From the NCBI GenBank assembly GCA_964514565.1, contig CAZERA010000001.1:310001-374000 (forward strand): a stretch of 64,000 nt of DNA, read 5' to 3'. Below are positions 14,730 to 42,282 of the stretch, piece after piece. Both the position numbers and the translations under genes were made by a program. The notes under the pieces are model-generated. The model made no database searches and was not told the DNA's origin. It was given only the letters and a program-made list of their open reading frames with translations. The stretch is from an uncultured Candidatus Peribacteria bacterium (GTDB lineage: Bacteria > Patescibacteriota > Gracilibacteria > RBG-16-42-10). The first letter of the stretch is position 1, and each line of letters starts with the position of its first letter.

Positions 14730-15677
14730 ATGATTCAGCGCTGGTCTCGATGGGCGGTAGTTCTGGTTCTTGCTTTTAGCCAGATTGCTACAGTTCATGC
14801 TGCGACTAATTTTCCTGATGTACCTGTCTCACATCCTGACTACCAAGCGATTCAGTACCTGCGTGACCGTCTGATTATCAATGGTTATCCAGATGGATTA
14901 TTTCGTCCTGGTGGCGTAGTCACTCGCGCAGAGATTCTTAAAATCGCGGCCAATGGTGCCAGTATCGCTACCAATAGTTTTGCTACGCAAGCGCCTACTT
15001 TCCCAGATGTCGCTGCCAATCATCCATTGAAACAGTTTATCAACTGGGCCCAAGCAACTGGTGCTGTCAAAGGATATGCTGATGGCACTTTTAGACCAGA
15101 GGCTGTAGTGACTAGAGGTGAGGCGGCTAAGATCTTGCTTAAGATCAACAACCTCATGCCTGATCCTCCCAGCAACTATTATTTCTTAGATGTACCACAG
15201 ACCTTAGATATAGCTCCCTATATTTATTTTTCAGTACTCAAGAATTTAGTAAGTGCCAATGGCAATCGTTATGGGACTGGTCTGGGTATGAAGCGAGCAG
15301 ATGTAGCTGAAATGATGTATCGCATCCTCATTATCAAACAAAATAATTATGCCCCCTTCGGTGGTAGTACATCCAATCCCTCTCCTGCGCCAGCTCCTGC
15401 TACTACTACAACACCAGCCAAAACTGTAAATATCTCAATTCAAGGCTTTCGTTATAACCCACCAGCCCTTACTGTAAATCTAGGTGATACAGTGGTATGG
15501 AAAAACATGGATACTGCACCACATACTGTCACTACCCAGTCCGGTGCACCAATCGGTTTTGATTCAGGTACATTGGGTCAAGGTCAAACCTTCTCATATA
15601 CCTTTAATCAATCTGGTACCTACAATTACCATTGTACTTTCCATACTGAGATGAATGGATCAATACTAGTACAATAA
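14730..15677 (+). CDS. Secreted protein with three SLH domains and a C-terminal cupredoxin (plastocyanin-like) domain
   Basis: Signal peptide; F-x-DV..GY-x-DG-x-FRP..TRAE repeats; PHTV..YHCTFHTEM type-1 copper ligands. Confidence 0.9.
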   Translation: MIQRWSRWAVVLVLAFSQIATVHAATNFPDVPVSHPDYQAIQYLRDRLIINGYPDGLFRPGGVVTRAEILKIAANGASIATNSFATQAPTFPDVAANHPLKQFINWAQATGAVKGYADGTFRPEAVVTRGEAAKILLKINNLMPDPPSNYYFLDVPQTLDIAPYIYFSVLKNLVSANGNRYGTGLGMKRADVAEMMYRILIIKQNNYAPFGGSTSNPSPAPAPATTTTPAKTVNISIQGFRYNPPALTVNLGDTVVWKNMDTAPHTVTTQSGAPIGFDSGTLGQGQTFSYTFNQSGTYNYHCTFHTEMNGSILVQ

Positions 15678-22543: not shown

Positions 22544-23602
22544 CTAGGTATTCTTAATGCGTTCAATAGCCCATGCTGCGTGTTCCTTTACTAAGTCAGA
22601 TGGATCGCTGGTTAGGGCAAGTAAGTACGGTAGTAGGTTTGAATCTTTGAGGTTACCAGCAACTACACAAGCATTTCGAATTAGCCCTACTCTTTTGGCT
22701 CTTAGAAATGGCGTGTTGGCAAAATATTTCTTGAATGTTTCTTGATCGGGAATGGTAAGAATCTTAATCAGAAAATCTTTGGAACTAGTGTATTGAGGAT
22801 TAGTTAAATCTGCCTCTATCTGAATATCTGACCATTTTTCAGGCACATAGGCTTTGGCTCGAATATTATGGGGGCAAACGTCTTGGCAAATGTCACAACC
22901 AAAGAGCCATGTACCCACTTTTTTTCGTAGCTCAAGTGGAATCGGACCTTTATTTTCGATTGTTAAATAAGAAATACAAAGTCGACTGTCTAATTCGTAC
23001 TCAGACGTGAGTGCTCCTGTTGGACACGCTGTGAGACATCTAGTACATGAACCACAGCTGCCTTGTGCTTGAACAGGTGAGGATGGTAATTCGGCAGTAG
23101 TAATGATTTCACCTAAAAGTACCCAGGAACCGTATTCTTTCGTAATAAGTGTAGTATTCTTGCCGATAAAACCCATGTGGGACTTACTAGCAAAACTTCG
23201 TTCCATGAGAGGACCATAGTCCACCGCGAAGCGATGATTAGTCTCTTGGAAGCTTTCAGAAAGTGAGGTACATAATTCGGCCAACTTCTGCTCAAATACT
23301 AAATGGTAATCAGGTTTGTTTTGGGCATATTGACCGACTCTAATCTGATCATTAGTGCTGGGTTGTGTTGCATAATTTAAGGCTACCATAATCACACTTT
23401 TGGCCTCAGGTAATATTTGTTCTGGATGACAGCGCTTAGCTGGATCTCGTGCTAAATAAGCCATATTGCCATGATGGTTTTTTTCTAACCATTGTAAAAA
23501 AGCAGCTTGATCTGAAGTCGGCATTTCTGTGTCACAGATCCCGACTAAATCAAAGCCAATTTTTTGCGCACATTGGTAAATGAGATTGACATCAGAGAGC
23601 AT
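22544..23602 (-). CDS. queG: Epoxyqueuosine reductase
   Basis: HGNM-x-YL, DYH, GFIGKN, GSW-x-LLGE, CGSCTRC-x-x-ACPT, CISYLTIE, GCDICQDVCPHN, RNA, HEAT-like C-terminus. Confidence 0.92.
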   Translation of the reverse strand: MLSDVNLIYQCAQKIGFDLVGICDTEMPTSDQAAFLQWLEKNHHGNMAYLARDPAKRCHPEQILPEAKSVIMVALNYATQPSTNDQIRVGQYAQNKPDYHLVFEQKLAELCTSLSESFQETNHRFAVDYGPLMERSFASKSHMGFIGKNTTLITKEYGSWVLLGEIITTAELPSSPVQAQGSCGSCTRCLTACPTGALTSEYELDSRLCISYLTIENKGPIPLELRKKVGTWLFGCDICQDVCPHNIRAKAYVPEKWSDIQIEADLTNPQYTSSKDFLIKILTIPDQETFKKYFANTPFLRAKRVGLIRNACVVAGNLKDSNLLPYLLALTSDPSDLVKEHAAWAIERIKNT

Positions 23603-31884: not shown

Positions 31885-32526
31885 ATGGCCGATATTGAAA
31901 ATCCAATTGCATTAGAAAAAAGCCAAGATGCCATGGGCAAAAGCCAAGCCCAGGAAGGGGGAGAATTCCCACCTGGGGTCATTGAAAAGGCTCGGGAATA
32001 CGGTGTACAACCAAGCCAATGGCAACAATATGGTGCTCAAATCCAAGGTGAATATGATCGGATTGTGAAATTGATCATGAAGGAATACAAAATGCTCGAT
32101 GATGTAGAGCAAAAAGAAATTTTGTTGGCCATTCAGTCAGGGGACGACACGGCTTTGGATGATGTATTACTCAATGTAGAAGCACGTTTGTCTGATCAAG
32201 ATCGGGCTTTGCCTAGTGTGATGAACAATCTCAAAAAAGTAGCAGCTAAAAACATTTTACAGTTGGCTGCTGAAGGAAAATTGGGACAAGGAGTAGTAGC
32301 CAAGCGTGATGAAGCAATGGCTCAGCTAGTAGATATTTTGCTCGGTCTCTTTCGTGCTCTCAATCAACCTGAACAAGACAGTACTATGGTAGCTATAAAA
32401 CAAGGGAACCTAGCTGTTCTAGATTCCCTTGTGGGTAACTTACCGATGCTCGGCTACAAGACTGATAAAGTAGATTTGTTAGTACTAAAGCAGGCTTTGG
32501 CGCAGAAATTAGTGGAACTTAATTAG
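31885..32526 (+). CDS. Hypothetical alpha-helical protein with an internal duplication
   Basis: EQKEILLAIQSGD..LD versus EQDSTMVAIKQGN..LD. Confidence 0.65.
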   Translation: MADIENPIALEKSQDAMGKSQAQEGGEFPPGVIEKAREYGVQPSQWQQYGAQIQGEYDRIVKLIMKEYKMLDDVEQKEILLAIQSGDDTALDDVLLNVEARLSDQDRALPSVMNNLKKVAAKNILQLAAEGKLGQGVVAKRDEAMAQLVDILLGLFRALNQPEQDSTMVAIKQGNLAVLDSLVGNLPMLGYKTDKVDLLVLKQALAQKLVELN

Positions 32527-32534
32527 TATTGCTG

Positions 32535-33131
32535 TTAAACACTCTCAGCTAGAGAAGCTAGTTCCCAGTGAAATACATTTCTCTTACCAGCACGGACTTC
32601 TTCATATCCATTAATACGATATTGAAGCGCATTGAGGATAGCTGTAAACTTTTGATCATCATATCTAGTTCTTAGACCAGCAAAAGTAGGAGATTCCTCT
32701 GTACGAATATTTTTCTCGGCAGGAATTAATGCGAAGTTACCTTCAATTTGGAGCTCTTCTCTCAAACCTCTTACAGCAGCTTGTGAATGAGTTTCTCCAG
32801 ATTTTGCTTTTTCTCCCACAGAATAATCTCGGGGGCGTACTTTTTGTACTTTGGTGCTTAAATCCTCTTGATAGGCCTCACGTAAATAAAGAGCAGTCCC
32901 ATCATTAGGACAATGATAGACTCTTACACCACTAGGCATAATTTGACGAATTAAACCTTGAGCGTCTTTAACTAGTTGAGTCTCACCTTCGCGTAACTCA
33001 CCCAAAAGTTTCTTTACTTTTGCTCCGTCGGTTCCCCATTGAGTTAAATCAACGCCGTTTGCACGTAAACACTCAGCAAGCTCTTCCAGGGAAGAAACTT
33101 GTATCGGTGTTTCTATAATTTCAATTGCCAT
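32535..33131 (-). CDS. NUDIX-like protein
   Basis: SVGEKAKSGETHSQAAVRGLREELQI resembles the Nudix box. Confidence 0.65.
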   Translation of the reverse strand: MAIEIIETPIQVSSLEELAECLRANGVDLTQWGTDGAKVKKLLGELREGETQLVKDAQGLIRQIMPSGVRVYHCPNDGTALYLREAYQEDLSTKVQKVRPRDYSVGEKAKSGETHSQAAVRGLREELQIEGNFALIPAEKNIRTEESPTFAGLRTRYDDQKFTAILNALQYRINGYEEVRAGKRNVFHWELASLAESV

Positions 33132-33233: not shown

Positions 33234-34496
33234 TTAAGCTGATGCCAATGAAATAGTTTCTGGATCAAATAACCGAGTTGAGAATGGGGGATGATCATTA
33301 CGTTGATTCAAGGTTCTTAGCACAGTTGGCCATCTAGTACCTTCAGGTTGATTCATAGCTCTTAAAACATCATTCCACATTACTGTCGGTGGAGGCACAA
33401 TACCTAATCTTCTTAGAATGGCTCTGGGAGCCTCTCTATATTTATAAATCTCAGCGAATCCAAAGCGATCTATCCATTCAGTGGACGAAGAACTTTTTGG
33501 AATTAACACTGTATCGATATAGCGATCAATCGTATTTCTAGGTAAGCCCCAGCGTCTGGTTTCATCAGATAGAAGAATATCTCTGCGAAGATTGTAGGGC
33601 AGCAAATGCCGTCTGTTTAAATAATCACGCAATTGTTCTCGTTCAGCTAGATCTATATCCCAATCAAAAGTATTAGTATTTTCCAAACCAATTGTTCTAA
33701 TCTTTTCTTGGCGCTCTCTTTCTTTGACCTCGTCTGGATGCGCTCGCAAACTTAAACCTAACTTGCGTCGAGTGTCAGTTTTTAAGGCCAATTGATAAAT
33801 CAAATTGAAATCTTTTACTGCAAAAAGCCGCTTTTTATCAACATTGAATACCTTACTGATTTGGTCTAGTTCTCTTAAATAGCGCGCATTATTGGCTAGG
33901 TCTTCTTCAAGATCCTCTATTATTCCTTCAGCAGTTCCATCATTAGTGTCCTCAAGCAGTCTTTCTAGAGTTTGTCCGTCAGGTCCCAAGTTGTTTAAAG
34001 CTGTATTTCGGCGTTCGTGCAAAGATAAGTAATCTAGTGTTTGCCTGAATTTCCCCGCTTGGTTACCAGAAATAGCTAAATCCTCAGCTCTTTCCAGATC
34101 ATATGGCCCATCTCTTAATAGTCTATATCTTCGTTCGAAGATATCTTCTGCAGCAAATACTTGTTCCCACCACCCCTGCCATCTGGGGTCAGTACGAGCA
34201 GGTAGCCGACGATGATTAGATATACCCCAAAAAAGCATCTTGTCTCGTAATTCGGTCTCGGCTGTTAATGAGTTTGTCCTATTCTTACGAGAGAGGGCAA
34301 TGAATTCTTTCTCTGTTATATAAAGATATCGAGCTTCTCGTCTAATGTACTTTCTTTGTTCTGCAGCCAAAATATCAGCGTAGCTTTTTCTCCGCGATAA
34401 TCGGAGTGCCTCCCATTTCCAGCGATATAATTTTTCTGGTGGAGGAGCAGGTTCGAATGTCTGTAATTCAATTTCGAGTTGGGTCTTAAGATCCAT
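33234..34496 (-). CDS. Arg-rich hypothetical protein
   Basis: Long ORF of ~420 aa with no recognised motif. Confidence 0.65.
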   Translation of the reverse strand: MDLKTQLEIELQTFEPAPPPEKLYRWKWEALRLSRRKSYADILAAEQRKYIRREARYLYITEKEFIALSRKNRTNSLTAETELRDKMLFWGISNHRRLPARTDPRWQGWWEQVFAAEDIFERRYRLLRDGPYDLERAEDLAISGNQAGKFRQTLDYLSLHERRNTALNNLGPDGQTLERLLEDTNDGTAEGIIEDLEEDLANNARYLRELDQISKVFNVDKKRLFAVKDFNLIYQLALKTDTRRKLGLSLRAHPDEVKERERQEKIRTIGLENTNTFDWDIDLAEREQLRDYLNRRHLLPYNLRRDILLSDETRRWGLPRNTIDRYIDTVLIPKSSSSTEWIDRFGFAEIYKYREAPRAILRRLGIVPPPTVMWNDVLRAMNQPEGTRWPTVLRTLNQRNDHPPFSTRLFDPETISLASA

Positions 34497-34552
34497 AAAA
34501 GCATGCAAGTGTTTATGTTTAAACCATTGCATGGCATTCTGTCAATGGGTGG

Positions 34553-35227
34553 CTAAGTAATCAAATACTTCTTCAAGGAAAGCAGATTAGAAAGTTGTAG
34601 ACAATGGACTTCAGGATTAGGAATGGAGATATTAACTAATAAACATGGAATCATCAGTTCTTTCGGCACCCAATAGTCAGATTTCTCTCTGTCACCTATA
34701 TAAAGAAATTGTTCAGGCCTGAGCTCTGGATAACATTTCAACCATGCTCGATACGCACTTCCATCGCTTTTACCTACTTCGCCAGTGATAACTTGATCAA
34801 ATAGACCTAAAGGAATATTTAATTTCTTTAACTTTTTTTCAGCAATAGGTCGAATGGAACCAGTAATCAAATCAACATGTTTATACTTTTGTTTCAATTT
34901 ATTCAGTAATTCTAATACCTCGCCATTTGGTAGCAAGAATTCAGCAATGTCAGCATTTTCCAATGCTTCTTGTACTACTTCTTTTGGATTAGGAATGCCT
35001 AAGCTAGTGAGAGTCTGACTACCGCTCAATCCTTTACCACTTTGATAGAGATCAGTGAATAGTTTGCGTGCCGCAGCTAGATCGCATCCTTTATGTTGTG
35101 CAATCTTTTCATAAATGTAGCCTTGAATAGCTTCATCAATCTTAGGCGATTTAGGATACAAAGTCTGATCTAAATCAAAACCGATTACTTCAATTCCTGT
35201 GAAGTCAGTAGAACTAATAAGCGACAT
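34553..35227 (-). CDS. HAD-superfamily hydrolase (nucleotidase-like)
   Basis: GFDLDQTLY (DxDxT), LITGS, K, YIGDREKSD; ATG 35227 overlaps the upstream stop. Confidence 0.9.
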   Translation of the reverse strand: MSLISSTDFTGIEVIGFDLDQTLYPKSPKIDEAIQGYIYEKIAQHKGCDLAAARKLFTDLYQSGKGLSGSQTLTSLGIPNPKEVVQEALENADIAEFLLPNGEVLELLNKLKQKYKHVDLITGSIRPIAEKKLKKLNIPLGLFDQVITGEVGKSDGSAYRAWLKCYPELRPEQFLYIGDREKSDYWVPKELMIPCLLVNISIPNPEVHCLQLSNLLSLKKYLIT

Positions 35228-37622
35228 AGAAAAGGGTAAGAGCTCCCAATGGATAGTTGAGTGTCTGAGCGTATTGAGTGGCAATATAATTGAGCAAGTT
35301 TTGATCTTCGGCACGGTGATCAAGTGTGCGATTAGCAAACACAGCTGTCATGTGAAGCTTTTTGCCCATAACATTGGCCTGTAAGAATACTAAGCAATCA
35401 CTTTGTGGATCATCTTCCTTGGCATGATAGCTACTGATCAGTGGATTGTTGTGATTGATGCCTTTTTCTTTGAGATAGGTAATCGCTTTTTGTAATACAT
35501 TTTGGCCACGATAATTTTCTAAACGGGCTAGAAATGGGTGATCAGGTTTTGTGCTGTTTTCAATAAGATCGCTGTAGATGTATGCCAATCCATTGCTGGT
35601 TTGTGGTGCTTTTACATTGTCGCCTAATAAGTAAGGCCCAATATGAGTATCAGGGGACTCTACGGGTTTAGAAGGTTCAGCTAAAAGCTTCTTGGTACGT
35701 TGTTCTTCAGTGAGCAGCAAAATATTGGCACGGCTTGAAAGCATAAACATATCTCCCATTGGACACTTGAGCGCGTCTAATACTGTTTGTACATAAGCAT
35801 CATAAAGACCAAAAATATTCTCTGGATATGCATTGACTGTGTTGTGAGCACGGGCGATATGGAATGAATAGAGCTTGCCATCTTGTACCCAAAATATGTC
35901 ATGCGTCAGACAAGGATCATGGGAGAATTCCATTTTGTTGGTCTCCGGATTGAGCCAACTACTCATGTCTTCTGCTGGATCAAAACGTTGAACAATCGTC
36001 GCTTTGTTTGGATTCTTTTGGAGGCTTTCTACCGCTCTTGGTAATTGATCAAAGCCAAAGAAACTACGTGTGCGTTCGCCATAGCTATAGGAGCCGTCAT
36101 GGTCAAAACGAAGCAGTTGGGCTTTGTACGCTGCTCTTACTTCTTCAGGACTCTGATCACCTTGTTTATAAATCAGTGGCATTGTAGCGAGCGCTTTATC
36201 GGCCTGGCGATATACTGCCAAGACTACAGCGCTACGTGCTAAACCCTTCCATGGATCACCATGTTCTTCAGTGAGACCTTTGGTATAGATTAGCTGCAGT
36301 ACAGATTTGTGGGTAGCCAAAAAGGTATCAGTGTCGGCAATTACCAATGGTAAATTGGTAGTATTAACTTTAAAAAGATTGGGAAAGTCTTGCATGAAAG
36401 CATAGCCTTCTTTGAGTGCTAGATATGCTCTACCGATCTGCGCGCCTACATCCATACGATGCAAGATATCCATCTCATATGTCTCAAAACGATTGAGTTC
36501 GGCTAGTTTGTTAATCACAGCAGTAAAAGATGCTGAACGTAGTTCAAATACCTCTTCACATACATCAAAAGCGAGACACATGACCGAGAGCTGATCTTGA
36601 GCCAAGCCCATTCGGTAGTAATATTGCTTGTCAGTTTGCAAGAAGACTTTTGGTTCTAGTGCCACCGTTTCTCCTGCTGCCACGTCAGTATCAGCAAGCG
36701 TCAGTGGTGTAAGTGGTACATCGTCAACGATATGTGTTTTCATTAATCCCAACTCTGCTCCCAGTAACAATTGCTCTTTTGGTGATAGAAACTGTTTCTT
36801 TTCACCCAGAAATTTCATTAAAGAATAACTGAGTAAGAAGTCATCGTCACCTTGAAGTGTATAGTTTTGATTGTCTATGCGAATATCCAAAACAATATTA
36901 CGATTGTCTGATCGTACGCGAAAGGGCACAGGAGAAATTTCCTCTGGTGCATCAATACTCATGCGAGGAGGCTGCAAATGTTGGAAGTCTTTTGCAGCTA
37001 ATTCTACCGTTGCTTTTGGTGTGGTTTGGCTATTTCCTACTACTCTGATCAAGTCTTTGAGTGCATCATAATAGACTTTGTCTTTTTGGTTGATTTTACT
37101 AATCAAAGCAAAGATCTTGGGATCGATACGTGGCTCCAACCAGCTTAAATACTCAGCGACAATTTGTTTACTAAAATTACTTTTGAAAACAAAGATTGGT
37201 AGTACTGTGATATTTTCTCTAAATAAACTGAGTAAGTGGTCAGGGATATTGGGATAATGAGCACTAGCAGCTCGTCCACCCTTGATAAAATTGCCCGTTT
37301 TTTCACTGTCATAGCCGTGCTGAATCGCCAGTAATAAATTGGTGCTAGGAGAGAAGGTCAGCCCTTCTTCAGCAAATAAAATAATGTAGCGTAAAGTAGG
37401 ATGGACCAATGCATTGACGATCATGCGTTCGGCTCCGTCCCGATTCACAATGAGAGATCCCAGTACTGACACATATGGGCGGAGGTCTGGGTCAAGCATA
37501 TTGAGTACTTGGCCAGGCGCTGTGGTATTGGTACAGATACCGATACTGCCATTTTTGCCTTCTACAGGTAGTTGAAGGAGAGCATCGATCAAGGGAAAAC
37601 TTTGTGTGCTATTTGCGTTCAT
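35214..37622 (-). CDS. Multidomain MtrA-like / DUF4346-like x2 / thymidylate-synthase-like x2 protein
   Basis: IGICT..G-x-L..DGAERMIVN..P-x-LRYIIL (MtrA-like); H-x-x-DVG-x-QIGRA-x-LAL-x-x-G-x-x-F-x-QD (DUF4346-like); YSYGER..DQL..DPCL..DGKL..RAHN..AYPEN (archaeal-type ThyA-like). Confidence 0.75.
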   Translation of the reverse strand: MNANSTQSFPLIDALLQLPVEGKNGSIGICTNTTAPGQVLNMLDPDLRPYVSVLGSLIVNRDGAERMIVNALVHPTLRYIILFAEEGLTFSPSTNLLLAIQHGYDSEKTGNFIKGGRAASAHYPNIPDHLLSLFRENITVLPIFVFKSNFSKQIVAEYLSWLEPRIDPKIFALISKINQKDKVYYDALKDLIRVVGNSQTTPKATVELAAKDFQHLQPPRMSIDAPEEISPVPFRVRSDNRNIVLDIRIDNQNYTLQGDDDFLLSYSLMKFLGEKKQFLSPKEQLLLGAELGLMKTHIVDDVPLTPLTLADTDVAAGETVALEPKVFLQTDKQYYYRMGLAQDQLSVMCLAFDVCEEVFELRSASFTAVINKLAELNRFETYEMDILHRMDVGAQIGRAYLALKEGYAFMQDFPNLFKVNTTNLPLVIADTDTFLATHKSVLQLIYTKGLTEEHGDPWKGLARSAVVLAVYRQADKALATMPLIYKQGDQSPEEVRAAYKAQLLRFDHDGSYSYGERTRSFFGFDQLPRAVESLQKNPNKATIVQRFDPAEDMSSWLNPETNKMEFSHDPCLTHDIFWVQDGKLYSFHIARAHNTVNAYPENIFGLYDAYVQTVLDALKCPMGDMFMLSSRANILLLTEEQRTKKLLAEPSKPVESPDTHIGPYLLGDNVKAPQTSNGLAYIYSDLIENSTKPDHPFLARLENYRGQNVLQKAITYLKEKGINHNNPLISSYHAKEDDPQSDCLVFLQANVMGKKLHMTAVFANRTLDHRAEDQNLLNYIATQYAQTLNYPLGALTLFYVAY

Positions 37623-38484
37623 AGGTATTGTGCCACTGAGAGGGGAGATACGTAGCTAAGCTGTGTTTTTCGTATTCGTCCTTCTCGAGGGCAAAGGTTA
37701 AGATTTCTGGATCAAACTTTAGCAAGAGACAGATCTCTTGTAAAAACTGTCTACATATCCCACACATCTCACAGCAATGAGTGAGGTGCTTGGTGGACAT
37801 CAAACCAATGTGCGTGATGGGAGAATTGCTGGACATGAGTGCAATAATCACTGCCGCCATCTCAGCATGCACATTGGCTCGATGATCAAAGCTGCTGTAC
37901 TGACCGCTGAAGTAATATTTACCATCTGCGGTGATCACACAGCAGCCGTAGCCACTCGCTTCATCTTTGGTGAGAAACGTGCGTGCTAAGCCTTTCCGGG
38001 CATTGTTTCTTAATACATCGACAATGTCTTGATTTCCTACCTCACCGAAGTTTGGTTCGATTGTGGCTACTTGAGTCCGTTTCAGTGGTTTTGTAATCGG
38101 TTGATAATAGGGAAATATCTGGCTGATATCTTCACTTAAAAAACGTTGATTTCCCTCCACATCGAGTACACTGTACTCAAGTGGTACACCAGTCCTCCTC
38201 ACATGATCTACTAGTATCTTTAGTACCTGGGGAGAAGCTACTTCTTCACTGGGGAGGGATTCATACATAGTGGCAATATGTTGAATACCAAAGTCATTTT
38301 GAGCCGTCGCTAATAAAAGCACAGCTAACTCACTTGGTATGTGGAGAATATGATTGAATGATTCTACACAGCCAGCTTGATACACTTGTCCACTGCTACT
38401 GATTGCCATACTGGCTGATCGAGGATGGTCTGTTTTTGTCACTCGGGCTAGATCAAGGGCAGCATGTAAATCAGGAAAGCGCAT
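37609..38484 (-). CDS. Tandem cytidine-deaminase-fold protein
   Basis: C-terminal VHAEMAA..CEMCGICRQ..YLP; N-terminal degenerate copy (HIPSELAV..SPQVLK). Confidence 0.85.
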   Translation of the reverse strand: MRFPDLHAALDLARVTKTDHPRSASMAISSSGQVYQAGCVESFNHILHIPSELAVLLLATAQNDFGIQHIATMYESLPSEEVASPQVLKILVDHVRRTGVPLEYSVLDVEGNQRFLSEDISQIFPYYQPITKPLKRTQVATIEPNFGEVGNQDIVDVLRNNARKGLARTFLTKDEASGYGCCVITADGKYYFSGQYSSFDHRANVHAEMAAVIIALMSSNSPITHIGLMSTKHLTHCCEMCGICRQFLQEICLLLKFDPEILTFALEKDEYEKHSLATYLPSQWHNTYERK

Positions 38485-38489
38485 GGAGT

Positions 38490-39386
38490 CTAATAAATAT
38501 CTTTGTTACTACGTAGCTTGCTAACCATCAGTCCACCCGCCGTCCAATCATAACGCAATACTTTGTTGATCAAATCATGGAGCAGGTGAATTTTGTCACG
38601 TTCTAGGCGAATGTACATTTTTTCTGATTGTTTACTAGAAAGGCGCATGGTCGGCCAAAAAGAGACTGGGAATGCATAATAAGGGAGCAGGTCTCCTTCG
38701 ATTGGTTCGATCACAATCACCGTGATTGGTTTCTGTAAAATCTCCATCGCATAATCAACACGGTGGCTGCCATCACAGATCACATAAAAATCAAATCTTC
38801 CGGTATGTTGTAAGCCATAATTGATGATCGAGGCATGTGAGTGAAATATGTCGAGATGATCTACTTTGCTTACTTCATCGATATAATAACCTTCTAAATA
38901 ACGATTGCCTAAGTTGTGTAGCTGTCCTCGAGCATCACGAATATAGCAGCCATGAAATCGTCTGCTTAAGTCAGCTAAATCCAGGTAGCCTTGTTTAAGA
39001 TTGTAAGTGTGTTTTTCCACAATGGGGGGCAACACATGAAAGTCCCCGCGTTCTGGCCAATGATACTTTACAGCGCATTGGAGATCATTGATTTGGAGAT
39101 TGTTTTTACGTAAAAAACTATCTACCTCAGCCATGATATCTAACTGATTTTGGTAGATAGTTGGTTGGCTGGTGAAAAGATTGAAAGATTTTTTATTGGG
39201 CAAAACCACTTGAGGAGGAGCTCCAACAGAAGTAGGAGGAAAGATCTGAGCAAGGGAATATTTGACTGCACCATAAGGATGGATCGGCCCTCCACGCACA
39301 TTATAGACACCAGCAAAAACTATTTTTTGCAGTGACTGATAGAGGCTGGCAAGTGAGATCTCTTTTATGATGGAAATATTGCTCAT
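38490..39386 (-). CDS. ParB/sulfiredoxin-fold-like protein
   Basis: LPPIVE..VICDGSHRV (DGxHR). Confidence 0.55.
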   Translation of the reverse strand: MSNISIIKEISLASLYQSLQKIVFAGVYNVRGGPIHPYGAVKYSLAQIFPPTSVGAPPQVVLPNKKSFNLFTSQPTIYQNQLDIMAEVDSFLRKNNLQINDLQCAVKYHWPERGDFHVLPPIVEKHTYNLKQGYLDLADLSRRFHGCYIRDARGQLHNLGNRYLEGYYIDEVSKVDHLDIFHSHASIINYGLQHTGRFDFYVICDGSHRVDYAMEILQKPITVIVIEPIEGDLLPYYAFPVSFWPTMRLSSKQSEKMYIRLERDKIHLLHDLINKVLRYDWTAGGLMVSKLRSNKDIY

Positions 39387-40029: not shown

Positions 40030-40692
40030 TCAACTCCACTTCAGCCTCTCACTATCGGGTATTCGTTTCTCCAAGAAACTAGTAATACGTGCTGGCACGA
40101 TACGATTATTAAACGTTTTTATGACTTGATCGCGTTGTCTAGCTATTGCTGCACGGTAAAGTGGTGCTATTCTCGCATTTCTTAACCAGCCATCAATGCC
40201 AGAACATAAAACAAATGCCGGTATGGTGTTAGTGAAAGCTTTATCTATATACCACTTGGGTAGTTGATTAGTTGATTCAGGAAATGCCTCGTCACAATCA
40301 TTACCAGAAAATAGTCGAGACTCGCCTACATTTTGGATAATGCTAGTCAGTACATCAATTGGCAGTAAAACATCCAATCTGCCATTACTGTCAGTAGGTA
40401 ATAATACGCGACTCAGACTTGCACGTATTTGGTTTCGTTCTTCTTCAGTAAAACGTTGGATCTCGGTATAGGTAGAGATGGGAAAATCTCCTTCTGTCAT
40501 TAATGCAGCTAAATTCTCATCTGCTTCACTCCCCCTTGTGCATCGTGATTGGAAATCAATTGTATCCATAGCTATAAAACTACGGATAAAATCGCGACAA
40601 TCACTTGATGAAAAGTCTACATGTGCCGGTGTGCTCTGCTCTGACGTTACTTTACTTTTCCAATCTAGAAAATGGCGAGAAGGTGTACTCAC
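40030..40692 (-). CDS. Hypothetical protein, paralog of 41548-42282
   Basis: Shared PAH-x-x-F, FP..ER-x-x-IR..VLLP..LPI blocks. Confidence 0.7.
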   Translation of the reverse strand: MSTPSRHFLDWKSKVTSEQSTPAHVDFSSSDCRDFIRSFIAMDTIDFQSRCTRGSEADENLAALMTEGDFPISTYTEIQRFTEEERNQIRASLSRVLLPTDSNGRLDVLLPIDVLTSIIQNVGESRLFSGNDCDEAFPESTNQLPKWYIDKAFTNTIPAFVLCSGIDGWLRNARIAPLYRAAIARQRDQVIKTFNNRIVPARITSFLEKRIPDSERLKWS

Positions 40693-41547: not shown

Positions 41548-42282
41548 TTAGTTAGTTCCAAATGTTCTTTGTCCTTTTCCTTTAGCTTTAGCCGGCTCAG
41601 CTACTCGTTGTGTTTTGTTCCAAGTTGCAATAAATACTTCGCGATGTTCACCCAAAGCTTGTTTGAATCTTTTTAAAAGTTCAGGTGTATTTAGAATAGT
41701 AGTGAGCTCTAGGCAGAGGGTGTATACAGTACTAAAATCACTGATATCAGTGTCTAGTATCCATTCTAAATAATTTTCTATAATACTTGGTTGGAAAAGA
41801 TACTTGCTTGCTACGTCCATCAATAATTGTGGGAAAAGATCATTGTTATTGGCAGCTTCTATGATCTCCAACAAGATTTGAATTGGAAGATAATCTGCTA
41901 AAACATTTTCGCTATTGATTGGAAGTAATACTGAGCGAATGTCCTGTCGAATTGCCGTACGCTCAGTAGTAGTCAATGTACAAATCGCTTCATATGCTTC
42001 AAGCGGAAAGTTGTCCATTACTTTATTGGCACTAGCCTCAATACTGAGGTCATCTTCCTGGCAGCTATCATCTGTTTCTAAGGCTTGTACTTGGGTCGGC
42101 TTCCCATCTGCGGTGTAGATCTTTACGCCATGCTCTTCGTCAAAAGTGGTACTTGCAATCAACGTATGCAAAAAAGCGCGAGCGTCTTCAGTCCTAAAGT
42201 AAATATGAGCAGGCTGTCCTGTTTTCCTCTCGGCCAACCGTTGTCTCCAAACAAAATGATCTGTGGTTGCAATACCGTCCAT
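41548..42282 (-). CDS. Hypothetical protein, paralog of 40030-40692
   Basis: See paralog blocks. Confidence 0.7.
   Translation of the reverse strand: MDGIATTDHFVWRQRLAERKTGQPAHIYFRTEDARAFLHTLIASTTFDEEHGVKIYTADGKPTQVQALETDDSCQEDDLSIEASANKVMDNFPLEAYEAICTLTTTERTAIRQDIRSVLLPINSENVLADYLPIQILLEIIEAANNNDLFPQLLMDVASKYLFQPSIIENYLEWILDTDISDFSTVYTLCLELTTILNTPELLKRFKQALGEHREVFIATWNKTQRVAEPAKAKGKGQRTFGTN

Follow-up and report, generated by a model that had tools for sequence, protein, structure and literature searches.

Two enzyme families are regarded as the basis of thymidylate (dTMP) synthesis: ThyA, which works together with dihydrofolate reductase (DHFR), and ThyX. In ThyA, we take Asp169 to lie near C5 and to contact folate, His207 and Tyr209 to bind the 3′-OH of the deoxyribose, and Arg126′/Arg127′ to form the phosphate clamp. 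According to passages of Lee et al. (NAR 2026, PMC13326640), Asn177 marks a uracil substrate in enzymes of the thymidylate synthase (TS) fold and an Asp at this position a cytosine substrate, methyl products are associated with a bulky Leu143 and hydroxymethyl products with an acidic residue in its place, and D169N is diagnostic of flavin-dependent 5-hydroxy-dCMP synthases. Here we analyzed a stretch of 64,000 nucleotides (the window) from an uncultured Candidatus Peribacteria bacterium (assembly GCA_964514565.1, contig CAZERA010000001.1, positions 310,001 to 374,000), which carries a cassette of four genes, g1 to g4, with a distant TS relative encoded by g3. We propose, with a probability of roughly 0.6, that the cassette is one conserved operon, specific to the candidate phyla radiation (CPR), that turns cytosine nucleotides or nucleosides into thymidylate by a non-canonical and DHFR-independent route, and that it replaces ThyA or ThyX together with dCMP deaminase. 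The proposal builds on the folds and motifs of the four proteins, on the conservation of the operon, on its mutual exclusion with other TS enzymes and on its swap with another TS in the same chromosomal slot of sister genomes, all of which were observed.

All four genes lie on the minus strand: g1 (298 aa) at 38490-39386, g2 (291 aa) at 37609-38484, g3 (802 aa) at 35214-37622 and g4 (224 aa counted from an ATG; its longest open reading frame (ORF) begins upstream, at a TTG at 35338) at 34553-35227. An earlier note on this DNA had described them as a coupled operon encoding a ParB/Srx-like protein, a double deaminase, an MtrA/DUF4346/TS fusion and a HAD protein. The ORF coordinates bear out the coupling, with a gap of 5 bp between g1 and g2 and overlaps of 14 bp both between g2 and g3 and between g3 and g4, and the four labels were supported as well, the DUF4346-like part of g3 by hhalign and not by Pfam.

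Among 401 evenly sampled genomes of the phylum, PF00303 (ThyA) was detected in 195, ThyX in 164 and DHFR in 175, and no TS at all in 55. The cassette is present in two of the 401, the source genome of the window (G000; 1.12 Mb in 7 contigs, 92.7% complete) and G027, and both fall among the 55 that lack ThyA and ThyX. Many of the CPR ThyX matches (e.g., in G305, G218, G063 and G087) consist of two Thy1 matches in one frame of 460-800 aa, that is, a tandem-duplicated ThyX, and some are longer. In a sample of the class, seven of 301 genomes matched the g3 profile; one did so weakly and with the TS domain only, and the other six (including G000) belong to the family of the window. Six of the eight sampled genomes of this family carry the cassette (G000, G416, G454, G462, G446 and G470), and a PF00303 match is absent from all six. 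The remaining two, G427 (a congener of G470) and G436 (a congener of G446), lack the cassette, and each gave a PF00303 match with an E-value of 2e-20. ThyX was found in none of the six family genomes tested for it (G000, G416, G446, G470, G427 and G436). The family genomes are related, so these counts reflect few independent events; G027 represents an independent second case. When a canonical ThyA was used as a tblastn query against G000, it found g3 only.

The two family genomes without the cassette carry a different set of genes in its place. This slot is bounded on one side by a homolog of the window gene at 31885-32526 and on the other by the gene of a Germane-domain lipoprotein. In G000 and G446 it holds the cassette, and in G427 and G436 it holds a cytidylyltransferase-like gene, a gene of 273 aa of the dCMP-deaminase family, one or two HIT genes, an aminotransferase gene and a gene encoding a 482-aa TS, on either side of which the gene order agrees with that of the window. 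G000 gave no tblastn match to the deaminase, the HIT protein, the aminotransferase or the 482-aa TS of these two genomes. We also considered g2 as a diverged copy of the 273-aa deaminase of G427, and this was ruled out (BLASTP E-value 0.028, no real similarity).

The 482-aa protein of G427 and G436 matches the Pfam models of MtrA (1.7e-18), Thymidylat_synt (1.1e-19) and PterinBD-DUF4346 (1.4e-15), passing the cut-offs for all three domains, and TIGR03283 (1.8e-36). It keeps the F-R-S-x-D and A-H-x-Y motifs, i.e., the equivalents of Asp169, Ser167, His207 and Tyr209, and by these residues it looks like a working dUMP methylase. Family members of 482 to 546 aa were found at L075:760-2208 and L078:8568-10016 and in L080-L084. 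As judged by weak PF00303 matches, the type is present in about 35 of the 401 CPR genomes, with a full-length homolog in all five that were spot-checked, and in about 27 of the 401 it is apparently the only TS. In G051 the same kind of deaminase lies again just upstream of the gene. P0289 (786 aa) is a protein of the 482-aa type in which the TS plus DUF4346 part is tandemly duplicated, and it may be an intermediate toward the two TS-like cores of g3. DHFR accompanies canonical ThyA in 152 of 160 genomes (151 of 159 without the unpublished genome G154). It is present in one of the 35 genomes with weak PF00303 matches, in none of the 27 with weak matches and no other TS, and in 21 of the 151 ThyX-only genomes. 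Hence, the MtrA-TS-DUF4346 family and the cassette both live without DHFR.

The metabolic setting of the two cassette genomes of the phylum sample is consistent with dTMP as the end product. The earlier note had recommended looking for thyA, thyX and folA elsewhere in the genome, and ThyA, ThyX and DHFR were indeed not found in G000 and G027. Its suggestion that the organism is short of folate held in part: DHFR was not found, but serine hydroxymethyltransferase (SHMT) is present in both genomes, as is ribonucleotide reductase. Thymidine kinase was not found in G000 or G027, and the search for deoxynucleoside kinases (dNK) gave no match above the cut-off. G000 has two adjacent genes of the thymidylate-kinase family outside the window (C1:35138-36306), and the same pair is present in G446 and G436; no gene of this family was found in G027 or G427. 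One of the paired genes might serve a nucleotide other than dTMP. The dTMP reading is favored by the mutual exclusion with ThyA and ThyX, by the swap in the same slot, and by the presence of thymidylate kinase in G000 and of ribonucleotide reductase in G000 and G027, without thymidine kinase in either. Accordingly, of the two functional readings offered by the earlier note, the one invoking a non-standard dTMP pathway is the one that we prefer.

To describe the spread of the cassette, homologs of g3 were collected. At an E-value of 0.001 or lower 178 were found, and the 120 that were listed are 51-96% identical to g3 over nearly the full length, with source names that all belong to CPR lineages. 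In a library clustered at 50% identity, 28 representatives of g3 were obtained at E≤1e-30, eight of which are full-length, with about 800 aa or more. Six proteins of 811-906 aa (P0266, P0271, P0275, P0276, P0278 and P0290) have the g3 layout with weak similarity (E-values of 1e-12 to 1e-32), possibly as a sister family. A contig search with a single sequence returned two close relatives only; three matches in Selenomonas were spurious (25-27% identity over 90 residues).

Fifty-nine metagenome loci were fetched, of which 26 leave room for all four genes and 33 are shorter. Each of the 26 loci with room, exclusively from Patescibacteria (CPR), carries the complete set of four genes, which confirms the conservation of the operon that the earlier note had asked about. 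The order is g1-g2-g3-g4 in 24 of them and g3-g4-g1-g2 in two. The shorter loci showed the expected partial orders except L062 and L066. L062 holds a relative of 38% identity, and neither g1 nor g2 lies in the 1850 bp upstream of it. L066, from a soil metagenome, is a decayed cassette with stops, in which g1-, g2- and g3-like pieces of about 28% identity are spread over several short frames. Natural fusions also exist: P0246 (1111 aa) joins g2 to g3, and P0247 (981 aa) joins g3 to g4; both could also stem from a frameshift or an assembly error, given that the genes overlap.

This conservation bears on another reading, that g3 is an ordinary folate-dependent TS with decorative domains and that g1, g2 and g4 are unrelated neighbors. 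Some homologs are indeed named 'thymidylate synthase' by JGI, SHMT is available, and g3 has the TS fold, a catalytic Cys and the equivalent of Asn177. Yet the four genes stay together in every informative locus even though g3 is only 42-57% identical in its best segment across the metagenome lineages, the genes overlap by 14 bp, and g2+g3 and g3+g4 occur fused. Furthermore, the homologs of g1 that were found are only about 300 aa long and bear only CPR names, many of them agree with g3 homologs in the length of their longest contig, the equivalents of Asp169, His207 and Tyr209 are lost, and there is no DHFR to recycle dihydrofolate. We therefore consider it quite improbable that g3 is an ordinary TS in chance company.

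The catalytic TS-fold domain of g3 comprises residues 424-650 (35673..36353, minus strand), with VIA Z-scores of 16-19. In an AlphaFold (AF2) model of g3 built with 63 homologs (predicted local distance difference test score (pLDDT) 87.1; predicted template modeling score (pTM) 0.70), this domain gave a VIA Z-score of 18.9 to 9iqc_A, 17.0 to MilA and 16.0-15.4 to ThyA chains, with an rmsd (root mean square deviation) to ThyA of about 3.0 over about 195 residues; Foldseek gave an E-value of 1.2e-9 to 9iqu. The family models of TS were all matched below their cut-offs (PF00303, 16.1 bits versus 24.3; TIGR03284, E-value 0.097; TIGR03283, 54 bits versus 174.55). In a profile search against the PDB the best match of this region reached an E-value of only 1.5 (Cryptosporidium DHFR-TS).

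To map the active site, g3 was aligned by hhalign with eight canonical CPR ThyA sequences (Prob 85%, E-value 5.8e-6); aligning it with the 482-aa relatives (Prob 98.5%) reproduced the mapping of Asp169, His207 and Tyr209. In E. coli ThyA numbering, Tyr94 (g3 Tyr514), the catalytic Cys146 (Cys571, within a Pro-Cys motif), Arg166 (Arg591) and the uracil-specifying Asn177 (Asn602) are kept. Changed are Leu143 (His568), Ser167 (Ala592), Asp169 (Asn594), His207 (Asn633) and Tyr209 (Leu635), and the Arg126/Arg127 pair has no equivalent in g3. Across 63 sequences, the listed g3 residues show no or almost no variation, with His568 present in at least 90%. By these residues g3 looks like an enzyme that modifies C5 of a uracil nucleotide, with cofactor and sugar sites unlike those of a classical TS.

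A C5 modification other than methylation must therefore be weighed. In that case g3 would hydroxylate or hydroxymethylate C5 of a uracil nucleotide, g1 and g4 would process the resulting 5-hydroxy- or 5-hydroxymethyl-(d)UMP, and the product would substitute or supplement thymine in DNA or serve as a small metabolite. The invariant Asn594 is the D169N signature of the 5-hydroxy-dCMP synthases, but the equivalent of Asn177 is still Asn, and it is Asp in all described enzymes of that kind. Likewise, Leu143 has been replaced by His568, though not by Asp or Glu. The closest structures are the entries of a flavin-dependent dCMP hydroxylase, 9iqc and 9iqu, and the deoxyribose ligands His207 and Tyr209 are gone; however, the TS that occupies the same slot in G427 and G436 looks canonical at its active site, which suggests that the end product is the same. 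Neither hydroxymethylases nor hydroxylases are known to oxidize folate, and this would fit the missing DHFR, just as a modified base in place of thymine would explain the absence of any other TS or of a thymidine kinase. The surroundings of the cassette show no conserved gene for a glycosyltransferase or for another downstream modification, however, and none of 32 pattern-matched stretches of the viral collection encodes a relative of it. CPR bacteria are mostly fermentative, and an oxygen-dependent hydroxylase seems unlikely as a core function in them. On balance we regard a hydroxylated or hydroxymethylated product as unlikely, although the Asp169 substitution and the lost His and Tyr keep alive the modified pyrimidine that the earlier note had entertained.

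The match to MilA, the CMP hydroxymethylase of mildiomycin synthesis, with its Z-score of 17.0 among the best structural matches, recalls a pathway for a secondary metabolite of the nucleoside-antibiotic kind, as with MilA or BcmA (bacimethrin). MilA acts on a ribonucleotide, and the sugar-binding residues are altered in such enzymes, as they are in g3. Nevertheless, the genomes concerned measure about 1 Mb and have a minimal metabolism, the cassette has no conserved companions for tailoring, export or resistance, and such a product would leave the mutual exclusion with other TS enzymes unexplained, so that we give this explanation scarcely any credence.

Upstream of the catalytic domain, g3 carries three further regions. 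Residues 6-206 (37005..37607, minus strand) form an MtrA-like Rossmann domain, which gave a VIA Z-score of 16.8 against 5laa_B, with an rmsd of 2.1 over 152 residues; the next unrelated fold reached a Z-score of 8.4. A profile of this domain matched PDB MtrA with an E-value of 1.3e-3, and the MtrA models were matched below the cut-off (PF04208, 13.9 bits versus 25; NF002126, 20.1 bits versus 161). In a portion of PMC4915002, His84 of MtrA is described as the lower axial cobalt ligand. In the HMMER alignment to 5laa this His84 pairs with the invariant Phe90 of g3, and Glu54 pairs with Asn60 or Ser. Owing to the change of His84 to Phe90, His-on corrinoid binding in the manner of MtrA is unlikely for g3. 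A His-on, cobalamin-dependent methyl transfer by this domain was rejected on the same ground and by the lack of an MtrH-like partner. The window also contains, at 22544-23602 (minus strand), a gene similar to that of the epoxyqueuosine reductase QueG (QueG_DUF1730 plus 4Fe-4S). QueG is cobalamin-dependent, and its presence suggests that this tiny genome may use salvaged corrinoid, which is relevant to the possible ligand of the MtrA-like domain.

Residues 207-327 of g3 (36642..37004, minus strand) form a beta-hairpin/helix insert that is confident in the AF2 model and had no fold match in the PDB profile search. The middle region of g3 reached, at best, an E-value of only 0.87 against PDB profiles (a DUF35 protein), and the ESM Atlas gave nothing usable for residues 207-423. 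Residues 328-414 (36381..36641, minus strand) are PterinBD-DUF4346-like: they align by hhalign with positions 395-481 of the 482-aa type (Prob 93.4%, E-value 2.6e-7), and by BLASTP residues 386-412 align with positions 452-478, which lie in the DUF4346 part. PF14251 is matched in the 482-aa type at 1.4e-15, and in g3 itself no Pfam DUF4346 match was obtained at E≤0.1. At the C-terminus, residues 655-802 (35217..35660, minus strand) make up another TS-like core, which is degenerate and lacks a catalytic motif. This core aligns by hhalign with the TS region, positions 223-370, of the 482-aa type (Prob 89%, E-value 2.1e-6), residues 743-798 align by BLASTP with positions 311-367, and the feature matches in the ESM Atlas to TS clusters reached 0.93-0.94. 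The accessory domains are conserved as strongly as the catalytic core and contain an invariant R61-D-G-x-E-R-M motif and the invariant residues C349, C355 and H388. Because of this conservation and of the absence of DHFR, we propose that handling the pterin or the reductant is the task of these accessory domains.

The protein encoded by g1 passes the cut-off of the Pfam family PF24392 ParB-CE (25.4 bits, cut-off 23), and a C204-D-G-x-H208-R209 motif is invariant in 34 aligned homologs; a motif of the D-G-x-H-R type is presumably a conserved feature of the ParB/Srx superfamily. In its AF2 model (pLDDT 88.3), which has a small inserted beta-barrel, the best eight VIA matches are all of the ParB/Srx fold, with Z-scores of only 5.9-4.0: sulfiredoxin, PadC, free serine kinase, SbnI, Atu1540, human Srx, ParB-N and KorB. 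With Foldseek the model matched nothing at E≤0.001, and the g1 profile matched no PDB sequence at E≤10. The 142 homologs are all about 300 aa long and their names are exclusively those of CPR. We propose that g1 is a putative NTP-dependent phosphotransferase, either a nucleoside kinase or an NTPase.

The C-terminal half of g2 matches cytidine deaminase models below the cut-off (PF00383, 22.6 bits versus 25, E-value 9.8e-5; TIGR01354, 33.5 bits versus 113.65, E-value 4.3e-8). The N-terminal half aligns by hhalign with the C-terminal half (Prob 96.5%, E-value 9e-10), hence g2 is a tandem, or double, deaminase. The zinc and catalytic motifs, H206-A-E208 and C241-G-I-C244-R-Q, are found in the C-terminal half alone, and the zinc ligands are lost in the N-terminal half. 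Judged by its motifs, the N-terminal half is a pseudo-domain and the C-terminal half the one predicted live deaminase domain. We take H-A-E and C-G-x-C-R-Q to be hallmarks of nucleoside-type cytidine deaminases, and g2 is thus predicted to be of the nucleoside-deaminase type. Finally, g4 passes the cut-off of PF00702 (HAD; 43.7 bits, cut-off 26.4) and has the D-x-D nucleophile motif as F-D-L-D-Q-T at residues 17-22. Its best specific models are matched below the cut-off (TIGR01993, pyrimidine 5′-nucleotidase, E-value 3.1e-11; TIGR02253, E-value 1.8e-11), so that it is clearly a HAD-superfamily phosphatase by family and, as we propose, a pyrimidine 5′-nucleotidase.

With a g2 of the nucleoside type, a coherent path to dUMP would result if g4 acted before it as a phosphatase and g1 after it as a kinase. 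In the dTMP route that we favor, g4 would take (d)CTP or (d)CMP down to (deoxy)cytidine, aided in some genomes by a neighboring Nudix or MazG-like pyrophosphatase, and the C-terminal domain of g2 would deaminate (deoxy)cytidine to (deoxy)uridine. The g1 protein, as a phosphotransferase similar to serine kinase and sulfiredoxin, would then re-phosphorylate (deoxy)uridine to the monophosphate. Cys571 of g3 would attack C6 of the uracil and the TS domain would add a one-carbon unit at C5, and the MtrA-like and DUF4346-like domains would handle the pterin or reducing cofactor, which would make a separate DHFR unnecessary. What we infer here are all of the substrates, the order of the first three steps, the role of the accessory domains, and the identity of the product as dTMP and not some other C5-substituted uracil nucleotide. 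Of all steps of this flow, the proposed kinase role of g1 is the weakest; g1 could equally act as an NTPase that opens the path, and g4 as a nucleotidase that regulates the pool.

Several points weigh against a thymidylate route of this kind. The detour through dephosphorylation, deamination and re-phosphorylation costs ATP, and a dCMP deaminase would not. The proposed role of g1 draws on fold matches with Z-scores below 6, and all family-model matches of g2 and g3 lie under the curated cut-offs. The TS domain of g3 is far more derived than that of the 482-aa type which it replaces (D169N, S167A, H207N, Y209L and no Arg126/127). Its D169N change is the published diagnostic of the 5-hydroxy-dCMP synthases in the passages of PMC13326640 cited above, and its best structural match is that hydroxylase (9iqc with a Z-score of 18.9, and 9iqu), with ThyA close behind at about 16. 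The residue at the position of Leu143, His568, lacks a bulky hydrophobic character, and such a change is tied to non-methyl products in those passages of PMC13326640. In addition, the sample of 401 includes 53 further CPR genomes in which both a TS and the cassette are missing, and since these genomes live without both, a missing TS alone proves little. The completeness of the cassette genomes is also limited (92.7% for G000, 81% for G470 and 85% for G454).

The earlier note had likewise pointed to phage base modification and to antiphage defense. Deaminases, Nudix or MazG enzymes and HAD enzymes are typical parts of nucleotide-depleting defenses, and a cassette with similar enzyme types might be an anti-phage or conflict system in which deaminase, phosphatase and pyrophosphatase together deplete or corrupt the pool of pyrimidine deoxynucleoside triphosphates. 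A sporadic distribution (two of 401 genomes) together with high conservation would be compatible with horizontal spread, and one SMODS-associated NUDIX gene (E-value 1e-8) lies inside a cassette, at L050:4188-4904 on the minus strand; it is placed between g2 and g3 on the opposite strand, at a position occupied elsewhere by a MazG-like or HAD-like gene. Against a defensive function, a scan of 10 proteins with PADLOC-DB 2.0 gave no weighty match (the best was an unrelated BrxC model on g3, E-value 0.0024 and 15.2 bits; weaker scores were 0.0089 for PDC-S07 on the neighboring Nudix-like gene and 0.02 for DruB on g1), and the PHROGs scan returned only generic phage TS and HAD families. The flanks consist of housekeeping genes with no defense island, no sensor, nuclease or regulator is conserved, and a defense role would leave both the TS exclusivity and the swap in the same slot unexplained. 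The association with defense islands envisaged by the earlier note thus found no support, nor did its phage framing, with no relative encoded in the 32 pattern-matched viral stretches, and we judge a defense or conflict system to be very improbable.

The window is an ordinary piece of chromosome, with genes for aminoacyl-tRNA synthetases, topoisomerase I, RuvAB and ribosomal proteins, and an origin of the cassette from a prophage or a mobile island was rejected in view of these housekeeping flanks and of the synteny kept across the family. The genes that flank the cassette on both sides have the same direction as g1-g4, the Germane-domain lipoprotein gene lying 15 bp upstream of g1 and an ORF of 432 aa with no known family lying 20 bp downstream of g4; the transcription unit of this genome may thus be longer than four genes. 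A scan for promoters and terminators gave counts no higher than the shuffled expectation and no clear operon boundary. The 432-aa ORF (33234-34532, minus strand) had no family match, its homolog was found only in the window's own genome among all fetched loci, and it appears to be a lineage-specific insertion between g4 and a Nudix-like gene. The latter (198 aa; 32535..33131, minus strand; PF00293, E-value 0.0026) is a loose partner, since homologs of it adjoin g4 in nine of the 59 metagenome loci and in L001 and L002; its homologs in L018 and L034 match PF00293 with E-values of 3.5e-5 and 1.6e-5. The other optional neighbors of the cassette are a MazG-like gene, a second HAD-like gene and the single SMODS-associated NUDIX gene. 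Farther upstream, the minus strand encodes a pair of paralogous proteins (220 aa at 40030-40692 and 244 aa at 41548-42282) on either side of a DUF3592 membrane protein, and homologs of them are present at the same position in L001, L002, L008 and L078. At 14730-15677 (plus strand) the window encodes S-layer-homology repeats joined to a cupredoxin domain of the plastocyanin/azurin type, which is unusual in CPR with minimal redox metabolism.

In the open-access full-text literature we found no description of the operon, of the 802-aa fusion or of the 482-aa MtrA-TS-DUF4346 family, and no paper that mentions 'DUF4346'; thyA is mentioned as horizontally acquired in groundwater Patescibacteria in a part of PMC12455944. 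The component folds and the likely function are known, and what is new is the enzyme variant, its partners and the independence from DHFR. The cassette occupies the place of ThyA or ThyX, and its core is an enzyme of the ThyA fold without the residues that hold folate and deoxyribose, joined to domains whose usual association is with the chemistry of corrinoids and pterins. Should dTMP be its product, the operon would be a new DHFR-independent solution, would give the MtrA-like and DUF4346 domains a first function outside methanogens, and would probably include a new kinase of the ParB/Srx fold. If the product is another, some CPR bacteria may carry non-canonical DNA. Either outcome bears on the supply of DNA precursors in ultra-small symbionts. 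More tentatively, and with considerable doubt, g3 may represent a third mechanistic kind of thymidylate-making enzyme, one with the ThyA fold that has abandoned the classical oxidation of folate and in which a flavin, or else its own accessory domains (MtrA-like, DUF4346-like and Cys-rich), would support reductive methylation, so that DHFR is not needed. Bolder still, 5-hydroxymethyl- or 5-hydroxy-dUMP might serve as a substitute for thymine in chromosomal DNA, with g1 as a new pyrimidine nucleoside or nucleotide kinase of the ParB/Srx fold.

Compared with known systems, g3 shares with classical ThyA (PF00303/TIGR03284) the fold, the catalytic Cys and the equivalents of Tyr94, Arg166 and Asn177, and it differs by five substitutions, by the missing Arg pair and by three extra fused domains. 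With the phage flavin-dependent 5-hydroxy-dCMP synthases (RB69 gp48, DLP3 gp80 and HY126 AfhB; 9iqu and 9iqc) it has D169N in common, but those enzymes carry N177D and L143E where g3 has Asn and His, and they are single-domain proteins of about 220-235 residues, whereas g3 is a multidomain protein of 802 aa. The bifunctional DHFR-TS of protozoa and plants also combines TS and a pterin-cofactor domain in a single polypeptide, which for g3 is an analogy only, because its partner domains are MtrA-like and DUF4346-like and not of the DHFR fold. MtrA itself, the corrinoid subunit of the methanogen methyltransferase (5laa, 5l8x), has the same Rossmann-type fold as the g3 domain over 152/159 residues; g3 has Phe90 for His84 and Asn or Ser for Glu54, it lacks a membrane anchor, and its operon lacks MtrH. 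The g1 protein probably has the same fold core as the small-molecule kinases of the ParB/Srx fold (SerK and SbnI) and sulfiredoxin (Z-scores of 4.9-5.9), and differs from them by the inserted beta-barrel, by the weak similarity and by having no PDB sequence match at E≤10. The 482-aa family (e.g., L075:760-2208), whose TS is nearest to TIGR03283, the methanogen-type TS, is made of the same building blocks as g3: the MtrA-like N-termini are 27% identical (E-value 5e-7), the TS cores align with a Prob of 98.5%, both proteins occur in genomes without DHFR, and both lack the cobalt-ligating His84 of MtrA. In the 482-aa family, however, DUF4346 follows the TS domain and the gene lies beside one of the dCMP-deaminase family, whereas in g3 the DUF4346-like part precedes the TS domain, and g3, unlike the 482-aa family, has an extra insert, a degenerate second TS core and altered residues, and travels with g1, g2 and g4.

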